UHGV virus genome: UHGV-1840666
DNA: 14,588 bases
Strand: one strand, 5' to 3'
Source: a virus
A model generated the notes under the pieces. The model was not told the DNA's origin. It did no database searches and was given only the letters and a program-made list of their open reading frames with translations. Shown in pieces: positions 1 through 14,588 of the stretch (position 1 is its first letter; each line of letters starts with the position of its first letter). Both the position numbers and the translations under genes were made by a program.

Positions 1-65
1 ACGGTATTTCCCGCGTGGTGTATGACATCAGCGGCAAGCCACCAGCAACTATTGAGTGGGAATGA
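1..65 (+). CDS. guaA: 3-prime end of upstream host-like gene, resembling the GMP synthase (GuaA) C-terminus; partial, continues left of window
   Basis: Frame 3 translates to ...GISRVVYDISGKPPATIEWE then TGA at 63-65. The ...PPATIEWE ending matches my recollection of enterobacterial GuaA; not verified. Confidence 0.45.
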   Translation, partial: GISRVVYDISGKPPATIEWE

Positions 66-113
66 TTAATAGCTAACTCATAGCAAATCATTTCTATTCA
101 GACACTAACTCAA

Positions 114-143
114 CCTCTGTTTTTACAGAGGGTTTTTGTTTTT
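114..143 (+). terminator. Rho-independent terminator after the guaA-like gene
   Basis: Stem CCTCTG (114-119) / CAGAGG (126-131), loop TTTTTA, followed by GTTTTTGTTTTT. Confidence 0.6.
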
Positions 144-256
144 ATGTATTCATTTCTATTCACTCTACACCATATTTTTCGGCGGTACAGGTGACGGTAT
201 TACCTTAAAGGTATACTCTCATACCGTCATGAAAATGGTTTCTATACGGGTGAATT

Positions 257-1506
257 GTGCTTACCGATACAAAATTAAAAAACCTCAAGCCGCAGGACAA
301 ACTGTACAAGGTCTCCGATCGTGACGGGCTGTATGTAGCTGTGCTTACGTCAGGCACGGTCTCGTTTCGCTACGACTACCGTATCAACGGTCGCCGCGAA
401 ACGCTGGTAATCGGGCAGTATGGGCGTGACGGTATCAGCCTGGCAGAAGCGCGAGAAGAACTGATTGCTGCAAAGAAGCTGCTTAAAGCAGGCCAGTCAC
501 CGGCTGCGGCTAAACGTGACGGTATCAAAAAGATTCGTGGTGCCGAGACGTTTGCGGTACATACCGACAGTTATATGAAACACGTCATCCTGGCTGACAG
601 TACCCGCGCAATGAAACAGGCGGTGATCGACCGTGACATACTTCCGGTTCTTGGCAATAAAATGATGGCTGAAATTACCACATCGATGGTTCGTGATTTG
701 TGTGACCGGATTGTCGAACGCGGTGGCCGGGCAACAGCAGTGCAGGCCAGGGAGATCATCAGTAGCGTATACCGTCACGCCAATGACCGTGGTCATGGTT
801 TGTTTAATCCTGCGGCTGACATTAAACCTTCGTCTATCGCCATATTTAAACCAAGAGAGCGAACACTGACACCAGAAGAAATTGGCCTGTTCTTCCGCAC
901 GCTGGATGCCATTGGTGCTATGGCACTATGAAAATGGCTTTAAAGCTGGTGCTTATCACTATGGTTCGTAAAGGCGAATTCACCAACGCAACGTGGGATG
1001 AAATAGATTTTAAAAAATGGACATGGACCATTCCTTCAGACCGCATGAAGGGAAGCCGGGCGCACGTTATTTACCTGCCTAAACAGGCTCAGGATATATT
1101 GGTCGGATTGCAGATGTGCGCTGGTGGAAGTGAATATCTGGTTCCTGGTCGTTACAATTTCCGGAAGCCATTATCTAATGCCGCGCTGAACTCTCTGATC
1201 GACAGAACGGTGAAAATAATAAATGAAGATGGTGAGCATATTCAGGGCTTCACCGTACACGATATGCGCCGTACAGCCAGTACATTGTTGCATGAGGCTG
1301 GTTATCCTTCAGACTGGATTGAAAAGGCTCTGGCACATGAGCAGAAAGGTGTGCGCGCCGTATATAACAAAGCGGAATACGCCAGACAGCGCGCCTACAT
1401 GTTGCAGCAGTGGGCCGATATGATTGATTCCTGGATTGACGGGGAGCATACGGATCTGATTCCGTTCTCCCCGTCGAAGTTTGAGAAGTGGATGGCGGGG
1501 GAATAA
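257..1506 (+). CDS. int: Tyrosine recombinase, P4-type phage integrase (N-terminal DUF4102-like arm-binding region plus C-terminal catalytic domain); split into two ORFs (257-931, 928-1506) by a frameshift near 925-935
   Basis: N-terminal ORF (GTG start) has LTDTKLKNLKP...YRINGRRETLVIGQYG typical of P4-like integrases. C-terminal ORF has VLITMVRKGEF...HDMRRTASTLL...YNKAEYARQ (R/H-x-x-R and Tyr region). Combined about 415 aa. Frame change 2 to 1 is consistent with a 1-bp deletion. Confidence 0.85.
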
Positions 1507-1509
1507 CGT

Positions 1510-1704
1510 TTAATTATTCTGCTGATTTTCTTCCATCTCGGCTTCTGCTGCCAGTGATTCAATTTTATCTGTGAATATTGCTGACAGTGTTGCAAATTCA
1601 GCATCAGTGACAGCGGGAATTGGAACAAACCTGATCCCGCTGTGTGCAAGCATGTTTGCAGTTTCAAGGCATTTCCTTAAATCTGCTGGTGATGCCCTGT
1701 TCAT
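1510..1704 (-). CDS. Small acidic hypothetical protein (about 64 aa), last gene of the leftward operon
   Basis: ATG at 1704-1702 overlaps the methyltransferase stop (ATGA coupling). Product MNRASPADLRKCLETANMLAHSGIRF...EAEMEENQQNN. Taken from the C-terminal part of the 1510-1824 track ORF. Confidence 0.35.
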   Translation of the reverse strand: MNRASPADLRKCLETANMLAHSGIRFVPIPAVTDAEFATLSAIFTDKIESLAAEAEMEENQQNN

Positions 1705-2347
1705 GCTGCACGCTCCCGCCCCTGGTTGTCTGTTGGTGACAGCGGAGCATTGCTGAATGCATTTGTTAATCCGGCAATATACAACGCGTATCCAGGGTGT
1801 AGTTGCACTGCTGGGTCTTCGCACTGATTACCCCAAACATCGAAGCCATGAGACGTTTGGCGGGCGAACAGTTCAATGCGAGAAACATCGCCTAACAATT
1901 GCACAAGTTTTTCACGAACGACATCTGGTTTTCTTGAATGCTCAAGCCGCGGTGCGGTAAATGACTGAACGATACCTGCATTAATGCGCGGAGGTAGTTT
2001 TCCCTTTACCGCAAACAGGCAATCTTCACTGTTGGCGCGAGTCATGTGTCCCATCCCCATAACCAGTTTATCTGGTTGTCGACTACCACATTTTATCCAC
2101 GTGAAGCCCTTCATGGTCATCAGACGAAATCCCCAGGCTTCAACAACTTTTAGTGCTTCGAGTGGTTGTGTTGGCACCCACCACATGGCCAACAGACAGT
2201 TTTCATCGGCCAAATCCCACACAGGAAGGCGGCAGATATCCAGCACACTCATAACCGGATATTTAAAACCGGCACCGCGATTACCATCTGCGGCTTTGTC
2301 CCGGTATACCCAGGTGGATCTGCATAGATTAGCGTGTATTTTTTCAT
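1701..2347 (-). CDS. MT-A70 family (phage Dam-like) DNA N6-adenine methyltransferase; frameshifted inside the DPPW catalytic motif near 2310-2314
   Basis: N-terminus MKKYTLIYADPP (frame of ORF 2249-2473) is followed, after a -1 shift, by WVYRDKAADGNRGAGFKYPVMSVLDI... continuing into the 183-aa ORF, which ends ...FDVWGNQ. The observed CCACCTGGG would read DPPW if it were CCACCCTGG. Confidence 0.8.
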
Positions 2348-2480
2348 TGTTCTGCTCCCAGACTTCCTTTGGTAAAGGCTTGTATCAGCCTGTTTGCTGC
2401 CGCTTTCTGTGCTGCTACATTGGCAATAACTGATAGTTTTTCCTGGCTTGCTTTCGTGCAGATCCCAACCCAATTATCCA

Positions 2481-3445
2481 TTAGGAAAAAATTCTCTCTT
2501 TCTGCGAATCAGTATTTGCACATAATGTTTCAATCATTGAAATTATTTCTTTTATTGAGTGATTAACCATCATTTGCTGAACAGCATAGCCAAAAGCGTT
2601 AATCATCACTGCATGAAACTGGATATATTCTCTTTTGTATTCTGATTGCTTTGTACCATGGCGAATTGCTTCTAGTTGTGTAAGACATAACCATGATTCC
2701 CATACTGACTCGATGTTACCAATTTCTAGTTTTTTCCCATTATGAATACAAAATTTTGATGTTGAATCACTTAATGCTTTGAAACTCACCCACATGTTTG
2801 ACTTTGACGGAACAACGTTGTGCTCGAAGTCAGTGACTTCTGCAAAAGTGTCATGTTGCGACAGGAAAGACACCATTTCTTGGGCAACATCGTTTCGTCC
2901 GTCATACGCCATATTAATTGCTGCAGATGGTTTTGAAACATTATTATTAATGTCAGAAAAGAACTGCTGACGCGCTTCAAAGGAAGGTTATGCGTAAGCA
3001 TAAGAGGAATCATAATTGTTTCGCCATAATTACGGCAGAACTCAGCTAATCCTGCAGCACGATGCTGTCCATCAAATAATTTTATTTCTGCATCCATAGG
3101 AAATCTAGCTAAACCGACATTAGTATTTCCAATCTCATGGAACTCTATTTCTGAGTTACAATTTCCGACCAATGGTGGAACAATAAATGGTTCCTTTTTC
3201 TCGTAAGCGTTGACTAAATATTGATAAAACTTTTTTACCCTGGTTGGATTAATTTCACGTTGAGAACGTTCAAGGGTACTTCCCGTATTGTCGGTTGCCA
3301 ATACTCTCGATAGTGCTCTTGCTGGTACTGTCATCATAAGTATTACAGTGCTTCCCTGCGTTCCTCGTGATGCGGGAAATTCAAAGAAATAATCGCCTAC
3401 CTTGCTCATGATATTACCTTTTACATTATTGTTTTGATTATTCAT
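2481..3445 (-). CDS. DGQHR-domain protein (DndB-like, ParB/Srx-fold); two overlapping ORFs joined by a 1-bp frameshift near 2979-2981
   Basis: N-terminal ORF contains ...IKLFDGQHRAAGLAEF..., the signature DGQHR motif. The downstream frame reads through as ...FEARQQFFSDINNNVSKPSAAINMAYDGRND... to the stop at 2481. Start could be ATG 3445 or ATG 3409 (MSKVGDYFFEF). Confidence 0.7.
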
Positions 3446-3737
3446 AAACCACCCCGCAACATCCTATGCCGCTATAGTCGCCACGGCGAAGGCCGTTACC
3501 TTTTGTGATACATTGGTCCCTGCGAACCGCGATCCTTGCACGTTCAACATCACCAGAAGCAACATCCATACACTGAAGCCAAAGGTGAGCGGCAATGCGG
3601 AATTGCCCTTTTTTCTCTCTTTCAATCGCGCGTTTTTCGATCTCTATCGCCGCAGGAGTAACGGCGACAATCTTTGACGGACTGCGCATTGAAACCTTAT
3701 TCATGTGATATTTTTCAAGTCGGCTTAACTTTCTCAC
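3438..3737 (-). CDS. Hypothetical protein (about 99 aa)
   Basis: ORF with GTG start at 3737 preceded by AGAGAGGG (RBS-like). Stop overlaps the start of the DGQHR gene. No recognisable family. Confidence 0.45.
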   Translation of the reverse strand: MRKLSRLEKYHMNKVSMRSPSKIVAVTPAAIEIEKRAIEREKKGQFRIAAHLWLQCMDVASGDVERARIAVRRDQCITKGNGLRRGDYSGIGCCGVVYE

Positions 3738-3850
3738 TTAATCCAACCCTCTCTGAAAATTAATGCCAGCAGATAAAGCCATGCTGAAACAGAGGCCAGG
3801 AATAAGTACCATCCTGACCATTTGCTCCAGTGCCTTAGCAGCACACTCAT
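3734..3850 (-). CDS. Small hydrophobic peptide (38 aa), putative single-pass membrane protein
   Basis: ATG 3850-3848 to TGA 3736-3734, product MSVLLRHWSKWSGWYLFLASVSAWLYLLALIFREGWIK with a 19-residue hydrophobic core. Stop overlaps the GTG start of the downstream gene (GTGA). Weak RBS. Confidence 0.3.
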   Translation of the reverse strand: MSVLLRHWSKWSGWYLFLASVSAWLYLLALIFREGWIK

Positions 3851-3937
3851 GCAGCGTTGCTCACAGGACGATATACACGTTGCTGAACAGGAGGCTTTTT
3901 ACCCTGGAACTCTGCCGGGCTTGCTGCCTGACGTTCA

Positions 3938-4096
3938 TCAACTCCACAGCTCAACTTCGTCACGGTTCCATGCGCAGCGTTTGTCAGTGATATACCAGCG
4001 TTTAGGAAATTCACCTGCGCGCTCCATACGGTCGATAGTGCTCCATGACAGTGGCACCACCGCCAGGAGTTCCTTCTTACCTAATGCACCTTTCAT
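3938..4096 (-). CDS. AlpA/excisionase-family small DNA-binding regulator (52 aa)
   Basis: ATG 4096-4094 preceded by AGAGAGG. Product MKGALGKKELLAVVPLSWSTIDRMERAGEFPKRWYITDKRCAWNRDEVELWS matches the AlpA-family winged-HTH pattern (..LS.STI.R....G.FP......W...EV..W). Below the 60-aa track cutoff. Confidence 0.5.
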   Translation of the reverse strand: MKGALGKKELLAVVPLSWSTIDRMERAGEFPKRWYITDKRCAWNRDEVELWS

Positions 4097-4145
4097 AAAT
4101 ACCTCTCTTGGTTGCAGTGCGGCGCGCGTGGCGCCGCGGTGGTGG

Positions 4146-5063
4146 TTACATAGATGTTTCGTTTAATTCTTCCCGACGAACGCTGTAAACGTCGGTGGCT
4201 TTTGCCAGCAGTTCGTCATCATCTGAAAGTTTTTGTGCAATGTATTTGTAAGCCTTATCCAGTTCGGAGACAGTGCTGTAATTCATCGCTGCGCTGGTAA
4301 AGGCCATCAGCATTTCTTCTGGATCACGGCTATCCGCTTTACGCGTTTGCTCATCAGGCTTTTTCACTGTTTTAGCGTTGATCAGACTGTTCATGCTGGA
4401 TGCTGTGCCGTGCTTTGCCTGACTTCTTGGAGTTACGTCACGTTCAATAATGTCAGGTGAGTCGATATATTTACCTTCCATTTCCTCAGCTGTGGCTTGT
4501 TGACCAATCTCCGGCCATGCTTTACGTAATGCCTGTGCCTCTGCGCATTTTGCCAACTGCGCATAAGGCGCTTTTTCCACATGGCATTTGGTGCCGATGT
4601 GTCACGCCCCCCAGTTGCATAGTTCTCAATCCAGTATTCTTTGGCGCTAAACTCTACGATTTCCCCGCTTGCCCATTCGCTTGCTGACGGTGTACTTACA
4701 CCACTGAGGGAAGGTAACCTCCACGCCTGAAAGCGTTTGTGTTACATCTGGACCGAACTCAGGTTCATTAGCGCCTGCGTAATCGCCGGAACGGTAGGCC
4801 TGAATGCGATAAAGTCCAATGCCAGGCATGACCACGTCGCGCCATTCATTCTTTCCACTCTTCGAGTCTTTAACACTCATTGGTACCAGGTGTACCGGCT
4901 TAAGAAGAGGATCGAGTTGACGCGCCCGGCAGTAATCGACTGCCATCATTACCGATTCATCTTTTGCCCCAGGGTAAATACTGTTTTTCAGAGCGCTCCA
5001 TGTAACTTCATCGATTCCCCGAATAGCCAACACATCATTGGTGATTGCAATTTCGTTGCTCAT
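4146..5063 (-). CDS. recT: RecT-family single-strand annealing recombinase; disrupted by two homopolymer frameshifts (near 4663-4666 and 4572-4576)
   Basis: ATG 5063-5061 overlaps the exonuclease stop (ATGA). N-terminal ORF ...DYCRARQLDPLLKPVHLVPM...GIGLYRIQAYRSG; the middle segment reads in another frame (...EIVEFSAKEYWIENYATGGRDTSAPNAMWKK); C-terminal ORF (V)EKAPYAQLAKCAEAQALRKAW... Placed next to a RecE-like exonuclease. Confidence 0.8.
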
Positions 5064-5881
5064 ACGTACATATCCTGTTTGCGTGCCCACTCAGGGCGTT
5101 TAATAATTTCCACGCCGCCCCATTCATCGCTGATGCGGCATTCGTGATAGGTATTCAGATCCCGGCGGAACAGAGCGTGCCCGGCATCGACATCCGGCGC
5201 ATCCAGCCCGAACACGCGTACCGGATACCGACCACAATCAATGCTTTCGCTCACGGCAAGAAAGAAAAAACCATGCGGCTGACCAGTAATCCTCATTGCG
5301 CCTTCGCGGTACATTGCGTCCTGCACGTGGTAGCGGAATTCCTCGATGTGACGTGCAAAACGGTCCATATCTGCAACCTTTTTCACGTCGACGATCACGT
5401 TGTGCTCGTTCAGCCATTTGTCTGGACGAATTCGGCACAACTCACCCGTCTCTTCATCGTTCCAGTACATTGATGCTTCGCAGTAACCAGGTGCTTCCAG
5501 CATCCAGCGTGCCGCCGGGTGAGCCATTGCGCTATCACGCATCAGCTCCAGTTTCCGCCACTGCTCGGCATCAAGTACCGTAATCCCCATATCCGCTACA
5601 TCACGAAGAAATGCTTCTTCGTCAGCTTTACCTTGTTTCGTCCGACGATCGAACTTCGGTGAAACAATGAAGCGTTTGTCGAATTCTCCAGGCTCCAGAA
5701 GCAGACAGTGCAATGCGGTTCCCATATCCAGTGCAGACTTTTTCTCTTCGTCTTCTGGTGCTGCCTGAACCCATTTAAGAAGCGCCGGATTCTTGGCAAC
5801 CATGTCCAGTTGCGACTTACTCACGCCGTCACCGGCGTGGTAGTCTTCGTTGCTGATGTCGAAATAAATTCCCGGTTTCAT
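5060..5881 (-). CDS. RecE-like PD-(D/E)XK exonuclease (exodeoxyribonuclease VIII-like), partner of RecT
   Basis: Intact 273-aa ORF MKPGIYFDISNEDYHAGDG...RIRPDKW...VIVDVKKVADMD...; directly upstream of, and translationally coupled to, recT. Confidence 0.75.
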   Translation of the reverse strand: MKPGIYFDISNEDYHAGDGVSKSQLDMVAKNPALLKWVQAAPEDEEKKSALDMGTALHCLLLEPGEFDKRFIVSPKFDRRTKQGKADEEAFLRDVADMGITVLDAEQWRKLELMRDSAMAHPAARWMLEAPGYCEASMYWNDEETGELCRIRPDKWLNEHNVIVDVKKVADMDRFARHIEEFRYHVQDAMYREGAMRITGQPHGFFFLAVSESIDCGRYPVRVFGLDAPDVDAGHALFRRDLNTYHECRISDEWGGVEIIKRPEWARKQDMYV

Positions 5882-6177
5882 GCCGCTTCCCTCTGCCCAT
5901 CAAGCTGATCCGCCAGATCCCAGCGCGCTATAATTGCCATTGCCTCGCGCCGGTAGGAATCCATCAGTTCTTCGAACTCAGGGCTGTCTTTAGCAGCCTC
6001 CAGCACTTCCTGACGAACGCCTTTGCCTGTTACAACGTCGAAAGTTGAGGACAGTTGATGAAGTCGGATGCTCTCAATCAGTTCAACTTGTCGGTCATAT
6101 AGCTGTTCTGACAGGCGGTAGTCCTTGTCGAATGCCAGCATGATTTTTTGAAGATTTTTCTGCTGATTAACGTTCAT
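5878..6177 (-). CDS. Hypothetical phage protein (about 99 aa)
   Basis: ORF with ATG at 6177 preceded by GGGAGGG (6190-6184); the track's earlier start at 6192 lacks an RBS. Stop overlaps the exonuclease ATG. Confidence 0.55.
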   Translation of the reverse strand: MNVNQQKNLQKIMLAFDKDYRLSEQLYDRQVELIESIRLHQLSSTFDVVTGKGVRQEVLEAAKDSPEFEELMDSYRREAMAIIARWDLADQLDGQREAA

Positions 6178-6179
6178 TA

Positions 6180-6332
6180 TCAGCCCTCCCATATCTCGTT
6201 ATCGTTGGCCACATCGCGAGCTTCTTTGCTGACGAAAGCCCACTTAATGCCTTCCTGTAAGGTGCGGAACTTCCAGCTCATGAATCCGCATGCAGTAACG
6301 CAGTACCAACCGTTGATGATTTTCCACTGCAT
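6180..6332 (-). CDS. Small hypothetical protein (50 aa), first gene of the leftward early operon
   Basis: ATG 6332-6330 just downstream of the leftward promoter/operator region, product MQWKIINGWYCVTACGFMSWKFRTLQEGIKWAFVSKEARDVANDNEIWEG; stop 3 nt before the next ATG. Confidence 0.35.
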   Translation of the reverse strand: MQWKIINGWYCVTACGFMSWKFRTLQEGIKWAFVSKEARDVANDNEIWEG

Positions 6333-6351
6333 AACTTGTTACCTCGGTCTG

Positions 6352-6428
6352 TTACCGTTGAGGTAATAATTATGCGTATTTGGTTTGATGTCAATAGATA
6401 TGAGTTAAAAAAATTACCCATAAGGTAA
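6352..6428 (-). promoter_or_regulatory. Leftward early (PL-like) promoter with two flanking operators
   Basis: Palindromes TTACCgttgaGGTAA (6352-6366) and TTACCcataaGGTAA (6414-6428) flank a perfect -35 TTGACA on the minus strand (6394-6389); AT-rich -10 region is ambiguous. An extra half-site TTACC lies at 6339-6343. Confidence 0.5.
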
Positions 6429-6440
6429 TCTTGTTGGCAA

Positions 6441-6463
6441 TAAAAAAGCCGCCATGAGGCGGC
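6441..6463 (-). terminator. Rho-independent terminator downstream of the repressor gene
   Basis: GCCGCC (6448-6453) / GGCGGC (6458-6463) stem with ATGA loop; on the minus strand the stem is followed by TTTTTT (complement of the A-run 6442-6447). Confidence 0.6.
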
Positions 6464-6485
6464 TTACTTACTGAAAACTATAGTT

Positions 6486-7069
6486 TTATTGTTTGCTTCT
6501 TTCGTTCTGGCTGATGACAAATTCAATGTAACTTTCGATCTTTGCCTTCTCTGTTTCGGGTAACAATGCGTAGCGCGAGCGGTCATAGTTGATAGTCGCA
6601 GGGTCGTGCGGGTGAATCAGTAATTCATAGCCGTGACGCCCGAATGCGGATGCAACATTCTCCAGGGTGGAAATGGAAACGCTGACTTCATTGTTTAACA
6701 GGCGGCTGATTGTCACCTGGCGACGCCGGATGCGCGGTGTAGTTTTCCCTGCGTTGAAAGGTCGCGGCTTTCGCTCATCCAGCGTTCCAGGTTGTGAGCC
6801 GCCAGCTGACCAATGTCGCTTGGGCCGACAGGCTGAAACCCCTCCTGAGAAAGCGAGCGATCGATATCAAGCCAGTTACGGGGTTTATTGGCGGCAGCTT
6901 CAATTTTTCGCGCAACCTGGTCGCCGATAACCTTCTTGCCAAGAGCCCAGCGGTTTACCAGATTTGCCTGAGTTCCAAGTTTTTCTGCCATCCGCGTCTG
7001 AACACCATTGAATTCACGGTCGATCAAGTCGTTGAGATTTTGCCTGCGGACGTCCTGGATACTTTTCAT
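6486..7069 (-). CDS. Phage immunity repressor with two tandem XRE-type HTH domains and no S24 peptidase domain; split by a 1-bp frameshift near 6714-6720
   Basis: N-terminal ORF ...GVQTRMAEKLGTQANLVNRWALGKKVIGDQVARKIEAAANKPRNWLD (HTH 1). After the shift the sequence reads ...LSTQGKLHRASGVAR-VTISRLLNNEVSVSISTLENVASAFG... (HTH 2). Sits between the two operator clusters, divergent from the Cro-like gene. Confidence 0.8.
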
Positions 7070-7124
7070 TTTCTGGAAAATCGCCTCATATATGAATCAG
7101 TAGATGATTCAATTTAAAGCAATA

Positions 7125-7187
7125 TTACCCAACAGGTAAATGCACCTCATAGGTAACTATCCTTGATTTTTGTTACCTTATGGGTGA
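7125..7187. promoter_or_regulatory. Tripartite operator region (OR-like) between the repressor and cro-like genes
   Basis: TTACCcaacaGGTAA (7125-7139), GCACCtcataGGTAA (7142-7156, imperfect), TTACCttatgGGTGA (7173-7187, imperfect); candidate -35 TTGATT at 7163-7168. Confidence 0.5.
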
Positions 7188-7223
7188 ATATTTATTATCT
7201 GAAATAAATATCAGGCAATAGCT

Positions 7224-7454
7224 ATGAGCGATAACGGACATTTCGATTTCAAAAAGCACTGGCTTGCACTTACTCCGGATGAGCGTGAAGCCTTCGCACA
7301 GGAAGCCGGAACGACGAGTCACTATATCCAGACTCACTTAACAGGTAAGCGCAAAATGCCAGGTAAAGTATTGATGAATGGGCTTTTTAAAGCCTGTAAA
7401 ACAAGACAATGGCTGCGCTCAAAAGCAGAACTGGCATACTTCTTCTACTCATGA
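7224..7454 (+). CDS. Cro/YdaS-like small HTH regulator (76 aa)
   Basis: First rightward gene after the operator region; ...TPDEREAFAQEAGTTSHYIQTHLTGKRKMPGKVLMNG... is HTH-like; followed by a terminator. Confidence 0.6.
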   Translation: MSDNGHFDFKKHWLALTPDEREAFAQEAGTTSHYIQTHLTGKRKMPGKVLMNGLFKACKTRQWLRSKAELAYFFYS

Positions 7455-7476
7455 TATCCAGCTACAACCCTCTGTA

Positions 7477-7498
7477 GACCGCCACCCGGCGGTCTTTT
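7477..7498 (+). terminator. Rho-independent terminator after the cro-like gene (tR1-like position)
   Basis: GACCGCC (7477-7483) / GGCGGTC (7488-7494) stem, ACCC loop, then TTTT. Confidence 0.6.
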
Positions 7499-7602
7499 CA
7501 TATCTATTCGTACCTCAAAGGTAATAAAAAACCAAATCTGGTTGATCAAATTTTCCAATTGTGCAAAATATCCAATATCAATAACAAAAAGAGGCGGAAA
7601 AA

Positions 7603-7815
7603 TTGAAGATAGTAACCAGAATGGAGGCCGCAAAAGCCGGGTTAAATCGCTATTTCACAGGAAAGCGGTGCCGTCACGGCCATCTCTCTGAAAGGTATGT
7701 TCTGAACGGAACATGTGTTGAATGTGCAATGAATAGCGCCAACCGCCATCGTAATGAATTTGCTTGTGCACTAAAGAGTGCAAGAGGGGAAACCTATGGC
7801 AAGCAGCTGGATTAA
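7603..7815 (+). CDS. Small Cys/His-rich hypothetical protein at the cII position (about 70 aa)
   Basis: TTG start with AGAGG RBS 8 nt upstream; product has C-x-H-G-H ... C-x-x-C spacing (KRCRHGHLSERYVLNGTCVECAM), suggesting a zinc ribbon. Function unknown. Confidence 0.45.
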   Translation: MKIVTRMEAAKAGLNRYFTGKRCRHGHLSERYVLNGTCVECAMNSANRHRNEFACALKSARGETYGKQLD

Positions 7816-8619
7816 GGTTGAAGTTATCACTCCTGATAAACCTGAAATTTTTCAGATAGCAGAAATTCTGGGTATTGATCCAGATGCTGTTCTTGGAAAG
7901 CTGGTTCGTATATGGGCATGGGCTGACCAGCAAACAATAGACGGTAACGCTGGCAGCGTTACAAAAGGAGTACTTGATAGACTCGCTTTTATTACAGGAT
8001 TTGCTGACGCCCTCATTAGCGTCGGATGGCTTGCTTATCATGACGGCAAACTAATTCTTCCAAACTTTGAGCGACACAATGGAGAATCATCGAAAAAACG
8101 TGCACTTACGAATAGAAGAGTGGCAGAGCATCGAAAACGAGTAACGCAAAAATAACGCCAACAGCGTTACAAAAGGAGTTACCAGAGGAAGAGGAAGATA
8201 TATATAAAACCCCACACATAGCGCACGTGCGCGAGGGTGCTCCGACCAGTGAAGCGAACGGTATGCCGTTGCAGGTGGCTGAACCTGAATTTCTGGATGG
8301 CCTGAGTGAACCCATCGGGAAATTTCCGATGACCGATGGCCGGCATCCGTCGCCGGATTTTCGACGGCGTGCTGCGCTGTGGGGAACGGCCCTGCCGGAA
8401 CCGGAATTTACACCTGCTGAACTTGCTGCATTCCGGGATTACTGGATGGCTGAGGGCAAAGTGTTCACGCAGGTTCAGTGGGAACAAAAATTCGCCAGGC
8501 ACGTAAATCATATCAGGGGAAAATCAAAAAACGCCGGGAAAAGCGATGAGCTTGACTGGAATAACACTGACTGGATAGAAGGGGTGTGGGATGAAATCAA
8601 CTCCAGAACTTCTCAATGA
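7796..8619 (+). CDS. Replication initiator: replisome-organizer N-terminal domain fused to a DnaT-like C-terminal domain; frameshift near 8134-8140
   Basis: ATG 7796 with AGAGGGGA RBS. N-part MASSWIKVEVITPDKPEIFQIAEILGID...VGWLAYHDGKL. After a -1 shift the frame reads NAKITPTALQKELPEEEEDIYK... and continues ...IGKFPMTDGRHPSPDFRRRAALWGTALPEPEFTPAELAAFRDYWMAEGKVFTQVQWEQKFARHV, closely resembling the E. coli DnaT C-terminus as recalled. Confidence 0.7.
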
Positions 8620-9366
8620 GTACGATCGCTTACGTGAGCATGGTGTTGCTGTGCATGAAGAGCGGCGTGACAGCAATGGCAAAAAGGAGCATGTCGCTAG
8701 AATTTTCAATGAACTATTTGTCCAGTTACAGGCTGCATTTCCCGCAAGCGTTTCGACCATAAGGGAGCAGAACAAACTTAATGAATTCCGTAAGCAATGG
8801 ATGCTTGCGTTTCTGGAGAATGGGATCACTACAATGGAACAGGTTAACGCTGGTATGCGCCACGCCCGCGCCAGTGAGTCTCCGTTCTGGCCGTCGCCAG
8901 GGCAATTCATCAAGTGGTGTAAAGACAGCAAGATGGTTCTTGGCGTCACCATTGACGATGTGATGGCAGAGTTTCACCGGTACAGCAAGGAAAAAAGTTT
9001 ATATCCTGGTGGTCCCGAAAGATTCCCGTGGCGGCACCCGGTTATGTACTGGGTCGTATGTGATACCCGCCGTGCAATGTATCAGCGCCAGCTTAGCGAG
9101 ATTGAGTTGAGAAACACGCGCGCAGGCTGCTCGATGATTGGGCGAAAAAGGTGGCTTCAGGACAGCAGATACCCGATCCGGTGATCAGCATACAGGCAAA
9201 GCCAGAACCCATGAGTACGCCTCCGGACACAGGGAGAGACGTTTACCATCCACCAGGGCGAAGTTTCGGGTGCATGCCTAACGCCGCCACCCTTGGGGGA
9301 ATAACACCGGCGCAGTGGCTGATGGAGGAATACAGGCGGGGAAAGGCGGCAGGATTTATCAAGTAA
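8591..9366 (+). CDS. Lambda P-like replication protein (DnaB helicase loader); frameshift near 9108-9116
   Basis: ...QWMLAFLENGITTMEQVNAGMRHARASESPFWPSPGQFIKWCKD... matches the conserved core of lambda P as recalled. The C-terminus continues in the adjacent frame (...RRLLDDWAKKVASGQQIPDPV...). Confidence 0.75.
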
Positions 9367-9371
9367 TACCA

Positions 9372-9391
9372 GCGCGATAGCGCATTTTTTT
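9372..9391 (+). terminator. Possible weak terminator after the P-like gene
   Basis: GCGC-gata-GCGC hairpin (9372-9383) followed by A then T7 (9385-9391); short stem. Confidence 0.3.
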
Positions 9392-9403
9392 ACGTCTCGA
9401 TAA

Positions 9404-9480
9404 TTACCTGTGAGGTAATAAAATATTCTAAACTCTATTGATTTCGTGTCTTATGTGGTTTTTAATTACCTCAGGGGTAA
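9404..9480 (+). promoter_or_regulatory. Second repressor-controlled promoter module driving the rightward accessory operon
   Basis: TTACCtgtgaGGTAA (9404-9418), -35 TTGATT (9438-9443), 17-bp spacer, -10 TTTAAT (9461-9466), TTACCtcaggGGTAA (9466-9480). Spacing is identical to the leftward module at 6352-6428. Confidence 0.5.
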
Positions 9481-9483
9481 ATT

Positions 9484-9827
9484 ATGAGAAAACAGATACA
9501 GGCTCTTGGTCGACTCAAAACAGGCAGATGAACAAAACAGAATCTGCGTATTGCCAGCACCTTGAGCTGCGTAAACGTGCAGGGGAAATCGCCTGGTATC
9601 GATTTGAGGGTATCAAGCTGCGATTAGCTGACAACACGTTCTATACGCCCGATTTTGCTGTGATGCTCGCCACCGGCGAGATGGAACTGCACGAAGTGAA
9701 AGGTTTCTGGACCGACGACGCCAGGGTGAAAACCAAAGTCGCCGCAGATCAGTATCCGTTCCGAATCATCGGGGTAACGGTTAAACCAAAGAAAGCAGGT
9801 GGTGGCTGGAACATCGAAGAGTTCTGA
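9484..9827 (+). CDS. Hypothetical phage protein with a GFW-DDA-V motif weakly reminiscent of RusA-type resolvases; N-terminus uncertain
   Basis: Main ORF from ATG 9528 (MNKTESAYCQHLELRKRAGEIAWYRFEGIKLRLADNTFYTPDF...GFWTDDARVKTKV...). A 15-codon ORF with a good RBS starts at 9484 and ends ATGA-overlapping 9528; this is either a coupled leader peptide or the real start displaced by a 1-bp deletion in the A-run at 9488-9492. Confidence 0.5.
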
Positions 9828-9888
9828 ATCGACGATCTTTTTAGTTATCAATGTAATCAATAAGTTATGTGGATAAGCGAGGGTAAAG

Positions 9889-10326
9889 ATGGAAAGTAAT
9901 ATCAAAGGGTTAGTTGCCGCCGGGCATGAGATGGCTTCGGAACTGAAAGCAGAATGTGGTGCCGTTGATATGCGCAGTGTGGCAAAGCTGATCAGCTATT
10001 TGGCAACGCAACTGGAAGTGCAACTGGTGCGTGCTAATGCGCTGGCTGCGGAGAATGCGCTGGCTCGTAAAGCAGTTCAGGCATTTTGCGATGTTGTTGG
10101 CGACAGCACCGAGGTTATCTGCGAGGAGATTGGGCGAGATGGCGTTCTGGTTATTTTGGAGGCAATGAAGGCAACAGGAAATATGCCAGCCACCGATGCT
10201 TTCCTGTCTGAAGTGCGGGCGCAGGGGGTAGAGATGATGCGCGAACATCCATCAATCAAACTTTGTTCTTTGACGCACATATGTGATGAGTTAGCCGCCC
10301 AGCTTCGCAAAGGAGGCAGCCAGTGA
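9889..10326 (+). CDS. Hypothetical phage protein (145 aa)
   Basis: ATG 9889 with GAGGGTAAAG RBS; intact ORF; stop overlaps the next start. Confidence 0.55.
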   Translation: MESNIKGLVAAGHEMASELKAECGAVDMRSVAKLISYLATQLEVQLVRANALAAENALARKAVQAFCDVVGDSTEVICEEIGRDGVLVILEAMKATGNMPATDAFLSEVRAQGVEMMREHPSIKLCSLTHICDELAAQLRKGGSQ

Positions 10327-10817
10327 GCGAAATTAATTACCAGGCATTGCGTGAGGCGGCAGAGAAAGCAACGTGGGGAGACTGGGACTCATATAAACCA
10401 CACCGTGGCGCACGTGGTTATGAGGTCCGACTAAGTAGTCAGGCCATTGCGCAACACGTTCTGAAAAACAACGCTGAATTTATTGCTGCCTTTAATCCAA
10501 AGGTTGCTTTGGCACTACTGGATGAACGGGAAAAAAACCAGCAATACATCAAACTCCGCGACCAGGAGAACGAGGATATTGCGCTAACGGTAGGGAAGCT
10601 GCGCGTTGAGCTTGAAGCAGAAAAACAGATGGCAAAGGTTCTATTTATGGAAAATGCTCGGCTTAAGTCAGGCATAGCCGGTCTGATACACCTCGGTATT
10701 CGATATGCAGATGTTGAGGTCATGAAAATTGCTGGAGATGCCCAGCTTTCTACTCCATGCACTGACAGCATCATAAACAGCATTGCAACAGGCATTCGCA
10801 TCAACGGAGGTGAGTAG
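10323..10817 (+). CDS. Ea22-like protein (lambda Ea22 family)
   Basis: MSEINYQALREAAEKA... and ...LLDEREKNQQYIKLRDQENEDIALTVGKLRVELEAEK... resemble lambda Ea22 as recalled; GTG start overlapping the upstream stop. Confidence 0.7.
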   Translation: MSEINYQALREAAEKATWGDWDSYKPHRGARGYEVRLSSQAIAQHVLKNNAEFIAAFNPKVALALLDEREKNQQYIKLRDQENEDIALTVGKLRVELEAEKQMAKVLFMENARLKSGIAGLIHLGIRYADVEVMKIAGDAQLSTPCTDSIINSIATGIRINGGE

Positions 10818-10993
10818 TGCGTGTGGCATGTATCGGCTTGTTACCGTACCCGACTCGTTTTTGGGCTTCTGCGCTAATTGCAAAGCCACATGTCCTGATG
10901 GCTGACAACATCATCCCGGCACCAAAGCGCCGCCATACCGGTATTGCAGCGGCACGACGAGCAGCAAAGAGACGCAGGAGAGCAAAGCGATGA
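10817..10993 (+). CDS. Possible small protein with Arg-rich C-terminus (58 aa)
   Basis: GTG 10817 overlapping the Ea22-like stop; ...HTGIAAARRAAKRRRRAKR; stop overlaps the next ATG. Could instead be a frameshifted extension of the Ea22-like gene. Confidence 0.25.
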   Translation: MRVACIGLLPYPTRFWASALIAKPHVLMADNIIPAPKRRHTGIAAARRAAKRRRRAKR

Positions 10994-11167
10994 AAAACCG
11001 TAAGGCAAAACGACTTTTTTTTACAGCGACCTGTGCGTGTGGTGGAGCTGGTTATTAGCAACCATAAGATAGCGGTACTCCATCCATTTGGTCAGGTGGC
11101 TTTTGCCGCAAAGCGTAAGCCTACTGCGTCACAGAACAGGCGGAAGAAAGGGTACGCTGTAAGATGA
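10990..11167 (+). CDS. Small basic hypothetical protein, paralog A (MKNRKAK...); frameshifted in a T8 run (11015-11022)
   Basis: ATG 10990. Read with T7 instead of T8 the ORF gives MKNRKAKRLFLQRPVRVVELVISNHKIAVLHPFGQVAFAAKRKPTASQNRRKKGYAVR, ending ATGA-overlapped with paralog B and resembling it at both ends. Confidence 0.3.
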
Positions 11168-11352
11168 AAAACCGTAAAGCAAAGATTCTGTTAGTTCGTA
11201 GAAACGCTCCTGGCGTCTGGCAGTGGGTGAGACTCAGCAACCGACGGATGGGGTTGATGAAATATTACGGGATGATGGATTGTGGTTTTTGCAAAAAGCC
11301 CAGCGCGGCGCAAAACCGCTGGAAAAACCACTTGCGCACTAAAGGAGAGTGA
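11164..11352 (+). CDS. Small basic hypothetical protein, paralog B (62 aa)
   Basis: Track ORF MKNRKAKILLVRRNAPGVWQWVRLSNRRMGLMKYYGMMDCGFCKKPSAAQNRWKNHLRTKGE; the first 20 nt nearly repeat the start of paralog A. Confidence 0.4.
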   Translation: MKNRKAKILLVRRNAPGVWQWVRLSNRRMGLMKYYGMMDCGFCKKPSAAQNRWKNHLRTKGE

Positions 11353-11353
11353 T

Positions 11354-11867
11354 ATGGCGTTAACACACCGCGAACTCTGTCAGATTGCGTATAAGTTCCT
11401 TAAGCGCAACGGGTTCAAGGTTTGTTTCATGACCGCTTTATAGCTGTAACCAGTACCGGAGAACAGCCAGATGCTATGGGATTCAGAAATTCAGCATCAT
11501 GCCTGATAGAGGCGAAGTGTTCTCGTGCTGACTTGTTGGCAGATAGAAAAAAGCGTTTTCGTAAAAATCCATCTCTTGGAATGGGCGACTGGCGATTCTT
11601 TATTAGTGAGCGGGAATTATTTCAGTTGAGGATTTACCACCTGGCTGGGGATTACTTCACGTTGTTAACGGAAGAGTACGGAAAGTACATGGGTGGCCCA
11701 AGGGTAATTGCTGTTGGGGTAATCCTGACGATAAGCCATTTACTGGAAATAAGCAGGTTGAATGCGATTACATGTTATCTGCATTAAGGCGCATGGAGTT
11801 GAGAGGGCACCTTAATGAAATATATGACGGTGTAATTGTTAATAAGAAAGAAGGAAACGCGGCATGA
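11354..11867 (+). CDS. PD-(D/E)XK-fold nuclease-like protein (Hjc/MmcB/VRR-NUC-like); two frameshifts (near 11425-11440 and 11600-11620)
   Basis: ATG 11354 with AAGGAG RBS. MALTHRELCQIAYKFLKRNGFKVCF...IAVTSTGEQPDAMGFRNSASCLIEAKCSRADL shows E...PD...E-x-K spacing. The frame returns to ...NPDDKPFTGNKQVECDYMLSALRRMELRGHLNEIYDGVIVNKKEGNAA with the stop overlapping the next ATG. Confidence 0.5.
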
Positions 11868-12642
11868 TCACTATTACCAATAAGAAACAGTATCCCAGCG
11901 AGCAATATCTTAATGAGCTGATCACCAACATAGAGTTTGCTGCAAGGGCACCAGTTGAAGTCGTGAGAGCAATGGCAGCAGAGCTACAGAAGCGGCGCGA
12001 AGCTGATAGCGCAGAACCAGTTGCTTATATTTTCAAACATCCGGCCGGGAAATTATTCTGGGCTTTAACGGATGAAAGTAATAAAGAGCAAGCGGACGTT
12101 ATTCCTGTTTATGCCGCCCCTCCAGTGCCAGTAGTACCTGAAGAAAAACCAATGCCTAACCCTCTTAAAATGTACGCGGTCGATGCTGTTGCCGCTATTG
12201 CAGAGGTGAGAGGCTGGAACGCTGCCGCGCCGCCATGCTTCAGGCCGAACCTGTAAGTAATAGTGATGAGTTACCGCTGGACTATCTGCAAGGACACAAA
12301 GACGGCCTGGAGTGGGCTGCACAATTGGCAGAAGCCAATCATCCGCAAACAGGTGACTGGTTGTACGACGACCCAATCGATCTTGCCAGGGCGATTCGCA
12401 AAGGTCCTGATATGCCTACTGTTCAGGCTGGCAACTATCCGGTAACTCCGGATGGTTGGATAAGCTGTAGTGAGCGAATGCCCGCTCAAGATGATTGGAT
12501 TTTAATTTATTCAAAGCACGGCGAGTATATGGCAGGACAGGTACAAGGGGAATACGTGGAGTTGAGCGACGGCACTTTATCGTGGTTAGGGAACGCCTTG
12601 TACTGGATGCCTCTACCGGAACCGCCGCAGGAGGTTAATTGA
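11864..12642 (+). CDS. DUF551-domain phage protein; frameshift near 12215-12235
   Basis: C-terminal part ...DGWISCSERMPAQDDWILIYSKHGEYMAGQVQGEYVELSDGTLSWLGNALYWMPLPEPP is a typical DUF551 signature; the N-terminal ORF from ATG 11864 (AAGGAA RBS) runs into it after a -1 shift. Confidence 0.65.
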
Positions 12643-12926
12643 TGGTCTCCTTCGCGAAATATACGATTATTGACTGGATAGCATTCATTCAGGTTTTGCT
12701 CATCTGGTTTTATATGGCTTACAGGAGTGGACAGTGGATTGTCAGTGTAGCCTGTAGCAATGGATGGCGTTGGTGGAACCGAAAGAATAAAAAAGCGCTG
12801 GCCTTGGCTTCGTTTTACGAAGCATTCAATCTTAACAGTCTTCAGCCTGGTTCTGTCGTTGTAGTCACCACTCAAAGCGGCATGACGATACAAATTCACA
12901 AGCCAAAGGAGGAAGGTCGTGGCTAA
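12642..12926 (+). CDS. Hypothetical protein with N-terminal transmembrane helix (94 aa)
   Basis: ATG 12642 overlapping the upstream stop (TGATG), AGGAGG RBS 9 nt upstream; hydrophobic segment IIDWIAFIQVLLIWFYMAY. Confidence 0.45.
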   Translation: MVSFAKYTIIDWIAFIQVLLIWFYMAYRSGQWIVSVACSNGWRWWNRKNKKALALASFYEAFNLNSLQPGSVVVVTTQSGMTIQIHKPKEEGRG

Positions 12927-13203
12927 CCTGCAACTTGCCGTTAAAGGTGAATACTTCGATGCCATGATTCGCGGAGAGAAAACGGAAGAGTATCGCCTGT
13001 GTAATGACTACTGGAATAAGCGAATTATGTTCCGCGAGTATGACCGCCTGATTATCACAAAGGGATATCCGAAGCGCGACGATTCCAGCCGCAGAATTGA
13101 CGTCCCGTATGACGGATATGAAATCAAGACAATCACACATCCGCACTTCGGCGATAAACCGGTAAAGGTGTTCGCGATAAAGGTGAATATCAGCAATGAA
13201 TAA
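12919..13203 (+). CDS. ASCH-domain-like protein (94 aa)
   Basis: GTG 12919 with GGAGGAAGG RBS; ...AVKGEYFDAMIRGEKTEEYR...YDRLIITKGY...KVFAIKV fits the ASCH/PUA-like pattern. Confidence 0.5.
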   Translation: MANLQLAVKGEYFDAMIRGEKTEEYRLCNDYWNKRIMFREYDRLIITKGYPKRDDSSRRIDVPYDGYEIKTITHPHFGDKPVKVFAIKVNISNE

Positions 13204-13469: not shown

Positions 13470-13814
13470 ATGTCAGATTTGGCTATGAAGGTTTTGAAAT
13501 GGCAATCGACTGGCGATGTCGGCATCAGTAGCGCAACTCTTGCCTCAATCGCATGTGGACTGAAAAAGAATATCTATGGTCATAGCTTCGGTGCTCCACA
13601 TGACGCAGCCGATTTCCGGCGATGCGTTGCACTTGTTGAGCAGATTCCAGAAATCAGAGATTCATTCGACAAGGTTGCAAAGCTCGTTCCGGCATTCAAA
13701 GGCATCCTCAACGAATGGGATTCCCTCGTTGCTCTGTTGAAGTCTGAAATGAAGATACACGGAAACAAAGCACCAGAGACTTACAGAAGAATTAGCGAAC
13801 TACGCAAGGACTAA
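13470..13814 (+). CDS. Hypothetical protein (114 aa) upstream of xis
   Basis: ATG 13470 with GGAG 7 nt upstream (the track start at 13443 lies inside the terminator loop); MSDLAMKVLKWQSTGDVGISSATLASIACGLKK... Confidence 0.5.
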   Translation: MSDLAMKVLKWQSTGDVGISSATLASIACGLKKNIYGHSFGAPHDAADFRRCVALVEQIPEIRDSFDKVAKLVPAFKGILNEWDSLVALLKSEMKIHGNKAPETYRRISELRKD

Positions 13815-13929: not shown

Positions 13930-14148
13930 ATGTACTTGACACTTCAGGAGTGGAACGCACGCCAGCGACGCCCAAGAAGCCTTGAAACAGTTCGTCGATG
14001 GATACGCGAGTGCAGGATATTCCCTCCTCCGGTTAAGGATGGAAGAGAGTATCTGTTCCACGAATCAGCGGTAAAGGTTGACTTAAATCGACCAGTAACA
14101 GGTAGCCTTTTGAAGAGGATCAGAAATGGGAAGAAGGCGAAGTCATGA
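13930..14148 (+). CDS. xis: Excisionase Xis (lambda type)
   Basis: 72-aa product MYLTLQEWNARQRRPRSLETVRRWIRECRIFPPPVKDGREYLFHESAVKVDLNRPVTG.LLKRIRNGKKAKS is near-identical to lambda Xis as recalled; overlaps the int start. Confidence 0.9.
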   Translation: MYLTLQEWNARQRRPRSLETVRRWIRECRIFPPPVKDGREYLFHESAVKVDLNRPVTGSLLKRIRNGKKAKS

Positions 14149-14588
14149 GCGCCGGGATTTACCCCCTAATCTTTATATAAGAAACAATGGATATTACTGC
14201 TATAGGGACCCAAGGACGGGTAAAGAGTTTGGATTAGGCCGAGACAGGAGGATAGCAATCACTGAAGCAATACAGGCCAACATTGAGTTATTTTCAGGAC
14301 ACAAACACAAGCCTCTGACAGCGAGAATCAACAGTGATAATTCTGTTACGTTACATTCATGGCTTGATCGCTACGAAAAAATCCTCGCCAACAGAGGAAT
14401 CAAGCAGAAGACACTCATAAATTACATGAGCAAAATTAAAGCAATAAGGAGGGGTCTGCCTGATGCTCCACTTGAAGACATCACCACAAAAGAAATTGCG
14501 GCAATGCTCAATGGATACATAGACGAGGGCAAGGCGGCGTCAGCAAGTTAATCAGATCAACACTGAGCGATGCATTCCGAGGGAGGCA
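14126..14588 (+). CDS. int: Lambda-type integrase Int, N-terminal part (continues beyond window); 1-bp frameshift near 14545-14548
   Basis: MGRRRSHERRDLPPNLYIRNNGYYCYRDPRTGKEFGLGRDRRIAITEAIQANIELFSGHKHKPLTARINSD... matches the lambda Int N-terminus as recalled. The ORF stops at ...GKAASAS while the +1 frame continues KLIRSTLSDAF..., which is the known lambda continuation. Confidence 0.9.

Follow-up and report, generated by a model that had tools for sequence, protein, structure and literature searches.

An apparent frameshift in the DPPW codons of an Escherichia coli prophage MT-A70 methyltransferase gene as a very probable homopolymer error of a low-coverage metagenome contig

Among the MT-A70 methyltransferases of prophages, M.EcoPA8orf6770P (gp5 of Stx2 phage PA8) displays weak and non-specific activity when alone, and forms a 1:1 holoenzyme with PNB-2, the product of the gene upstream; the C-terminal 27 residues of enzymes of this STEC type may matter for the assembly with PNB-2 (PMC10810198). 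M.EcoPA8orf6770P is further reported to prefer 16S rRNA in 30S subunits and to affect spontaneous prophage induction, and over-production of M.EcoGV results in the methylation of GATC sites in DNA (PMC10810198). A further member, gp33 of phage phiV10 (PhiV10p33), is named 'DNA methyltransferase', and eukaryotic proteins of the MT-A70 type include the ciliate MTA1 complex and METTL3. Fusions or linkages of ParB-fold proteins with methyltransferases have also been described as common in phages (PMC12704722).

The window considered here, i.e. the whole stretch of viral DNA that was analysed (14,588 nt), holds a gene for an MT-A70 family methyltransferase on its minus strand (1701..2347). The gene measures 647 nt in the window and 648 nt (215 aa) in its intact form, and its orthologue in the closest complete genome, NZ_CP126926 (APEC E19035), is annotated as MT-A70 family methyltransferase, WP_023145212.1. 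The intact or repaired protein matched the Pfam family PF05063 over the entire profile (1-172 of 172; 78.9 bits for a cut-off of 23.9, E 5.7e-22). Downstream of the methyltransferase and overlapping its stop lies a DUF1382 gene (1510..1704, minus strand), which is intact here, followed by the P4-type tyrosine integrase gene of the guaA-adjacent prophage (257..1506, plus strand), which is split into 224 and 192 aa by a GGG to GG change at 923. Upstream, a DGQHR-domain (DndB-like) gene of 355 aa (2344..3409, minus strand) overlaps the methyltransferase start by ATGA and is broken by two one-base deletions, at 2508 and 2975. The same neighbourhood was found in NZ_CP126926, with the DGQHR gene upstream, DUF1382 and the convergent tyrosine integrase downstream, and guaA immediately after. 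The prophage is phiV10/epsilon15-like and integrated next to guaA, its terminase and portal genes being located further along. On the basis of these comparisons, the real gene is considered to belong to the early-left operon of an E. coli prophage of the phiV10/epsilon15 type and to encode an intact 215-aa DPPW MT-A70 enzyme; this intact form has nothing unusual among the prophage MT-A70 enzymes of the group comprising phiV10 gp33, M.EcoGV and M.EcoPA8orf6770P. By analogy with the homologue described in PMC10810198, the putative enzyme would catalyse AdoMet-dependent N6-adenine methyl transfer.

The closest of these relatives, phiV10 gp33, shared 97% identity (208/214) with the repaired protein, and its gene likewise belongs to an early-left operon, where it precedes DUF1382 and a convergent integrase of the P4 type. 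The two loci differ in that PerC lies directly upstream of the methyltransferase in phiV10, whereas the DGQHR/DndB-like gene is intercalated between PerC and the methyltransferase here, and in the one-base gap that sets the window copy apart from both gp33 and WP_023145212.1. M.EcoPA8orf6770P was 81% identical (154/190) over residues 2-191 (E 4e-123), with an N-terminal DPPW as well; its gene is also found in a prophage early region near int and DUF1382, and its start also overlaps the upstream gene. In contrast, its C-terminal tail (about 24 aa past residue 191-192) is unrelated to that of the window enzyme: the alignment ended at residue 191-192 and the STEC-type C-terminal 27 residues were not matched. 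No PNB-2 subunit gene was found adjoining the window methyltransferase, the comparison of the upstream DGQHR protein with PA8 PNB-2 (KP682374 2851-3282) giving a BLASTP E value of 0.62. Similarity to the eukaryotic MT-A70 proteins extended to a full-length Pfam match, and matches among PDB sequences, in which the DPPW was aligned, included the 'MT-a70 family protein' of 7f4r/7f4l (E about 5e-13) and METTL3 (E about 4e-6). Unlike these proteins, to which its identity was about 30% or less, the window enzyme is a stand-alone bacterial/phage enzyme of 215 aa, and no METTL14- or MTA9-type partner was present here.

Read from the ATG at 2347, the minus strand of the window gives ATG AAA AAA TAC ACG CTA ATC TAT GCA GAT CCA CCT GGG TAT ACC GGG... 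The altered motif IV, GAT CCA CCT GGG (2309..2320, minus strand), has one C fewer than the intact GAT CCA CCC TGG (G); on the plus strand this is a GGG to GG change at about 2314, which appeared as an alignment gap against NZ_CP126926. A preliminary description of this DNA had located GAT CCA CCT GGG between 2305 and 2320, and it was indeed found at 2320-2309. In this uncorrected form, motif IV reads DPPG instead of DPPW, and the residues after it are out of frame. The frameshift product is an N-terminal stub of 32 aa (2249..2347, minus strand; sequence MKKYTLIYADPPGYTGTKPQMVIAVPVLNIRL), which consists of 12 native residues (MKKYTLIYADPP) and 20 out-of-frame residues before the stop, and was annotated as a gene on the source contig by the gene caller. 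A downstream ORF of 183 aa beginning with MSVLDI (1701..2252, minus strand), in a different frame from the stub, starts at the position of Met33 of the intact protein and is devoid of DPPW, which agrees with the earlier claim that the gene is split at its active site. The addition of a single C (CCACCTGG to CCACCCTGG) yields a protein of 215 aa, MKKYTLIYADPPWVYRDKAADGNRGAGFKYPVMSVLDI..., in which DPPW occupies residues 10-13, as in every relative examined. The gene repaired in this way was identical to the intact gene at 1493922-1494569 of NZ_CP126926.1 at 648/648 nt, and its product was 100% identical to WP_023145212.1; the one-C repair that had been proposed was thereby confirmed. The sequence expected after the repaired motif was also in frame, but YRDK does not directly adjoin DPPW, the actual continuation being VYRDKAADG...

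It is very probable that this frameshift results from a base-calling or assembly error, namely the under-call of a C/G homopolymer in a metagenome contig, and that the organism itself does not bear the mutation. The methyltransferase frame would have been broken by a CCC read as CC at a k-mer coverage of about 2.5, and the reads at 2314 would be expected either to disagree or to be too few. The deletion was reckoned non-biological because of the error spectrum, the state of housekeeping genes, its absence elsewhere and the identity of the source contig. Regarding the latter, positions 1-10252 of the window were 100% identical to contig NODE_374_length_24114_cov_2.450494 of ENA assembly ERZ504554, which was retrieved through the exact 183-aa product, and the truncated lambda-like integrase fragment matched NODE_374 of ERZ504554 and no other contig. 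Position 14588 of the window is the last base of NODE_374, of which the window represents the final 14,588 nt; the contig position therefore equals 9526 + p, where p is the position in the window. The 'cov' value in SPAdes contig names is the k-mer coverage, and NODE_374 is thus a metagenome contig built from few reads per position, at a k-mer coverage of about 2.5.

The alignment of window positions 3-10334 with NZ_CP126926 showed 99.8% identity; it contained 12 gaps of one base each and just 7 mismatches, of which four fell in a complex site (3942-3948) and two at the edge of the alignment. In the part matching this genome, 9/17 mapped prophage genes were broken by indels. Apart from an intergenic one-base gap at 115 and the lesions of the integrase and DGQHR genes given above, one-base indels were found at 3942 in an AlpA-like HTH gene (the complex site), at 4568 and 4674 in bet, at 6720 in a repressor-like HTH gene and, in the replication region, at 8152 in the DnaT-like O gene, at 9106 in P and at 9525 in DUF1064. 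The stretch holding the indels from 3942 to 9525 (3847..9827) thus shows lesions of the same class as the methyltransferase gap. In the lambdoid part, one-base C deletions were detected on the plus strand at 12221 (DUF551) and 14543 (lambda-like integrase) by comparison with NZ_CP116071 and NZ_CM132938, the integrase ORF ending early, at 14551, after the latter deletion. All of the 13 indels of the window other than that at 2314 concern G or C and most are deletions in runs of 2-3 nt. The AlpA-like HTH gene is interrupted by an inserted base, unlike the deletions of the other genes. A putative indel at window position 10620 was dropped, as it was seen against a single reference, of 92% identity, and was absent against two others.

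Housekeeping genes were affected as well. In the part of the contig lying outside the window, eight more one-base deletions were observed against the APEC genome, distributed among guaA (three), guaB (two) and xseA (three). Because of these deletions, each gene was called as two or three fragments (guaA, 173 + 217 aa; guaB, 130 + 183 + 191 aa; xseA, 153 + 256 aa). For the contig as a whole, about 22 reliable single-base indels were counted in about 19 kb, 20/22 being deletions and 21/22 involving G or C, and isolated substitutions relative to near-identical references were very few. The frequency of indels grew with the length of the G/C run, from 2/4450 isolated bases and a handful among 1113 doublets to 9/190 triplets and 2/31 runs of four; A/T runs were hit in 0/324 triplets, 0/86 runs of four and 1/43 runs of five. 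Indels make up roughly a tenth of the spontaneous events in E. coli mutation accumulation. Assuming such a 10% indel share, the probability of at least 12 indels among 19 events was 2.6e-8.

Homopolymer indels in low-coverage or flow-chemistry assemblies are a known source of 'frameshifted proteins' in draft genomes. The lesions of the contig resemble those of such drafts in being one-base indels, mostly deletions, that depend on run length and are spread evenly over phage and housekeeping genes; they differ from them in being almost confined to G/C runs. This near-exclusive G/C bias of the deletions does not correspond to the classical error pattern of 454 or Ion chemistry, which is a point against the under-call explanation. 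It is worth noting that the complex site in the AlpA-like HTH gene (3847-4096, minus strand) departs from the simple homopolymer errors found elsewhere: it combines an inserted base and three mismatches within 7 nt (3942-3948; AACTCCACAGC versus AA-GCCAACGC), and this cluster may be either a local misassembly or a real variant.

The position of the deletion within the catalytic motif can be considered in the same terms. The intact methyltransferase gene contains 16 G/C runs of at least 3 nt, two of which (CCC and GGG) are located within the DPPW codons, CCA CCC TGG G, and about 4.7% of the G/C runs of at least 3 nt on the contig have lost a base. A gene of such size would then be hit with a probability of roughly 50% and, once it is hit, the lesion would have about 1 chance in 8 of falling inside the motif. 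Given this number of runs and this rate of loss per run, the landing of a deletion in DPPW requires no biological cause.

The main alternative is a genuine inactivating mutation, by which the gene would be an MT-A70 pseudogene in the decaying prophage of a gut E. coli strain, and it was judged very improbable. Prophage accessory genes are dispensable, and the deletion was present in both ENA ERZ504554 and Logan DRR042503; its occurrence in two assemblies would point to a real, or at least systematic, change if the libraries were independent. However, apart from the gap, no base distinguishes the gene from intact copies (100% identity), guaA, guaB and xseA are broken likewise on the same contig, and frameshifts at a density of about one per kb would be incompatible with a viable chromosome; a living genome in which nearly all genes above 600 bp are frameshifted, guaA and guaB among them, is not plausible. 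Indels moreover far exceed substitutions, and a mutational origin would require one real deletion among about 21 identical-looking artefacts. The frameshift as a property of the organism is not supported, in light of the similar one-base G/C lesions across phage and housekeeping genes and since no independent assembly displayed the deletion. Taken individually, any single indel among these many errors could still be genuine.

Searches for the deletion in other assemblies also spoke against a mutation. The gene region matched 542 E. coli complete-genome records, the best at 99.9% over 851 versus 852 bases, which corresponds to the single gap. With 64 nt centred on the site as the query, matches were obtained in 488 E. 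coli complete-genome records, none of which reached 99% identity, and the full-length matches listed among them were all at 98.5%, i.e. one gap in 65 columns; the deletion was thus present in 0/488 of these records. Exact copies of the 34-mer carrying the deletion were absent from the species-representative genomes of GTDB, from IMG/VR and from the metagenome contigs of JGI, as opposed to at least 120 matches of the intact 35-mer in IMG/VR. The sole other carrier was a 2.4-kb Logan contig of run DRR042503, which had the deletions at 923 and 2314 in common with the window and showed no mismatch to it. This contig also had two deletions of its own, TTT to TT (241) and CCCC to CCC (1472), which were absent from both the ENA contig and the reference. 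These differences between the two assemblies at 241 and 1472 show that the lengths of homopolymers are not stable in this material. The two carriers, which differ only at such other homopolymers, are most simply explained as a single read set, and the ENA and Logan contigs are probably two assemblies of the same noisy reads. The runs with neighbouring numbers, DRR042402-3, come from PRJDB3601, a gut metagenome project from Japan for which 454, Ion PGM/Proton and MiSeq instruments were used; DRR042503 may conceivably be part of it too.

Another point in favour of mutational decay is that two other public runs bear a different frameshift in the same gene. This lesion, A6 to A5 in codons 2-3 (window 2339-2344), was observed in the Logan contigs of SRR22784722 and ERR14116787, two unrelated runs in which the DPPW codons are intact. 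The A5 allele was found in 0/21 complete genomes covering the DGQHR-methyltransferase junction, and it could reflect either an error that recurs or a null allele that is real but rare.

Programmed recoding or phase variation, in which a -1 shift at CCA CCT GGG or slippage in C/G runs would restore DPPW, appears extremely unlikely. A -1 shift after CCT would indeed allow the T to be read again as part of TGG, giving TGG GTA TAC and a product of the type DPPWVY... However, no X XXY YYZ slippery heptamer is present and the runs are of just 2-3 nt; the enzyme is encoded in a single frame in all 488 genome records and in at least 120 viral contigs, and identical lesions are scattered over unrelated genes. 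As for a functional, N-terminally shortened methyltransferase corresponding to the 183-aa MSVLDI product, it has an ATG start, was annotated by the gene caller of the source and retains a Pfam MT-A70 (PF05063) match of 63.6 bits, restricted to profile positions 30-172, but such an enzyme is implausible to the point of being negligible because motif IV is absent, the replacement of DPPW by APPA having abolished the function of the 81%-identical M.EcoPA8orf6770P (PMC10810198), and no natural homologue starts at this position, intact copies being of 208-216 aa with DPPW at residues 10-13.

The gene located directly 5' of the methyltransferase varies among these prophages: it is PerC in phiV10, the 143-aa PNB-2 in PA8 and an ORF of 62 aa in PA28. 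The DGQHR gene found at this place in the window is a minority arrangement, as 4/116 IMG/VR loci had it between PerC and the methyltransferase versus 109/116 with PerC directly upstream; the DGQHR-methyltransferase arrangement was present in about 21 complete genomes. Its product matched PF14072 (E 3.2e-46) and the DGQHR domain TIGR03187 (192.6 bits), and scored 110 bits against the DndB equivalog TIGR03233, below the cut-off of 328. No dndCDE genes were found near the DGQHR gene in NZ_CP126926, where it is flanked by PerC and the methyltransferase. With PADLOC and NCBIfam, the DGQHR and methyltransferase proteins received generic names only (DndB-like, Type II MTase, DGQHR domain). Since the DGQHR gene holds the place that PNB-2 occupies in Stx phage PA8, its ATGA-coupled, DndB-like ParB-fold product may be seen as a candidate alternative targeting or regulatory subunit, which would redirect the methyltransferase to DNA or to another RNA site; this proposal, drawn by analogy, is tentative and rather unlikely.

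Up to about position 10330, the window follows the phiV10-like prophage at guaA; beyond this point it corresponds to the left end of a lambdoid prophage, with genes for Ea22, DUF551, DUF4752, ASCH, xis (13930-14148) and a lambda-type int (14126-end), the junction region extending over 10330-13200. In other genomes, this lambdoid part adjoins ybhC at att-lambda. The window as a whole was not found at a single location in any complete E. coli genome, the highest coverage being 77%. On a contig with a cov of 2.45, the junction may be a chimeric join through common Ea22/DUF551/ASCH modules; the alternatives are a genuine hybrid prophage or a rearrangement mediated by a prophage. Upstream of xis, an ORF of 114 aa (13485-13814, plus strand) had its first 51 residues 96% identical to gp06 of Stx phage PA28, the 62-aa ORF that lies directly upstream of, and overlaps, the MT-A70 gene of that phage. 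The 114-aa ORF matched no Pfam family and showed no similarity to PA8 PNB-2; on sequence grounds, its likeness to PA28 gp06 suggests module shuffling around the MT-A70 methyltransferase. The identification of PA28 gp06 with PNB-2 itself was considered and dropped, because the PA8 record shows PNB-2 as a different protein of 143 aa; in addition, PA28 lacks the terminator sequence given in PMC10810198.

The density of homopolymer indels on this contig, about one per kb, calls for caution on the part of anyone reading its genes, and the apparent pseudogenes, split genes and frameshifts of the window should all be discounted. Those of the integrase, DGQHR, bet, repressor, O/P and lambda-like int genes are concerned. 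The proposed loss of phage-specific adenine DNA methylation is doubtful too, as the closest characterised homologue, 81% identical, has been reported to act mainly on 16S rRNA (PMC10810198). Were the deletion real, it would represent a natural null allele of an MT-A70 enzyme, of which a close homologue is reported to modulate the induction of Stx prophages. More generally, the codons of catalytic motifs rich in Pro and Trp/Gly, DPPW among them, consist of C/G runs, and such motifs are natural hot spots for errors of this kind.
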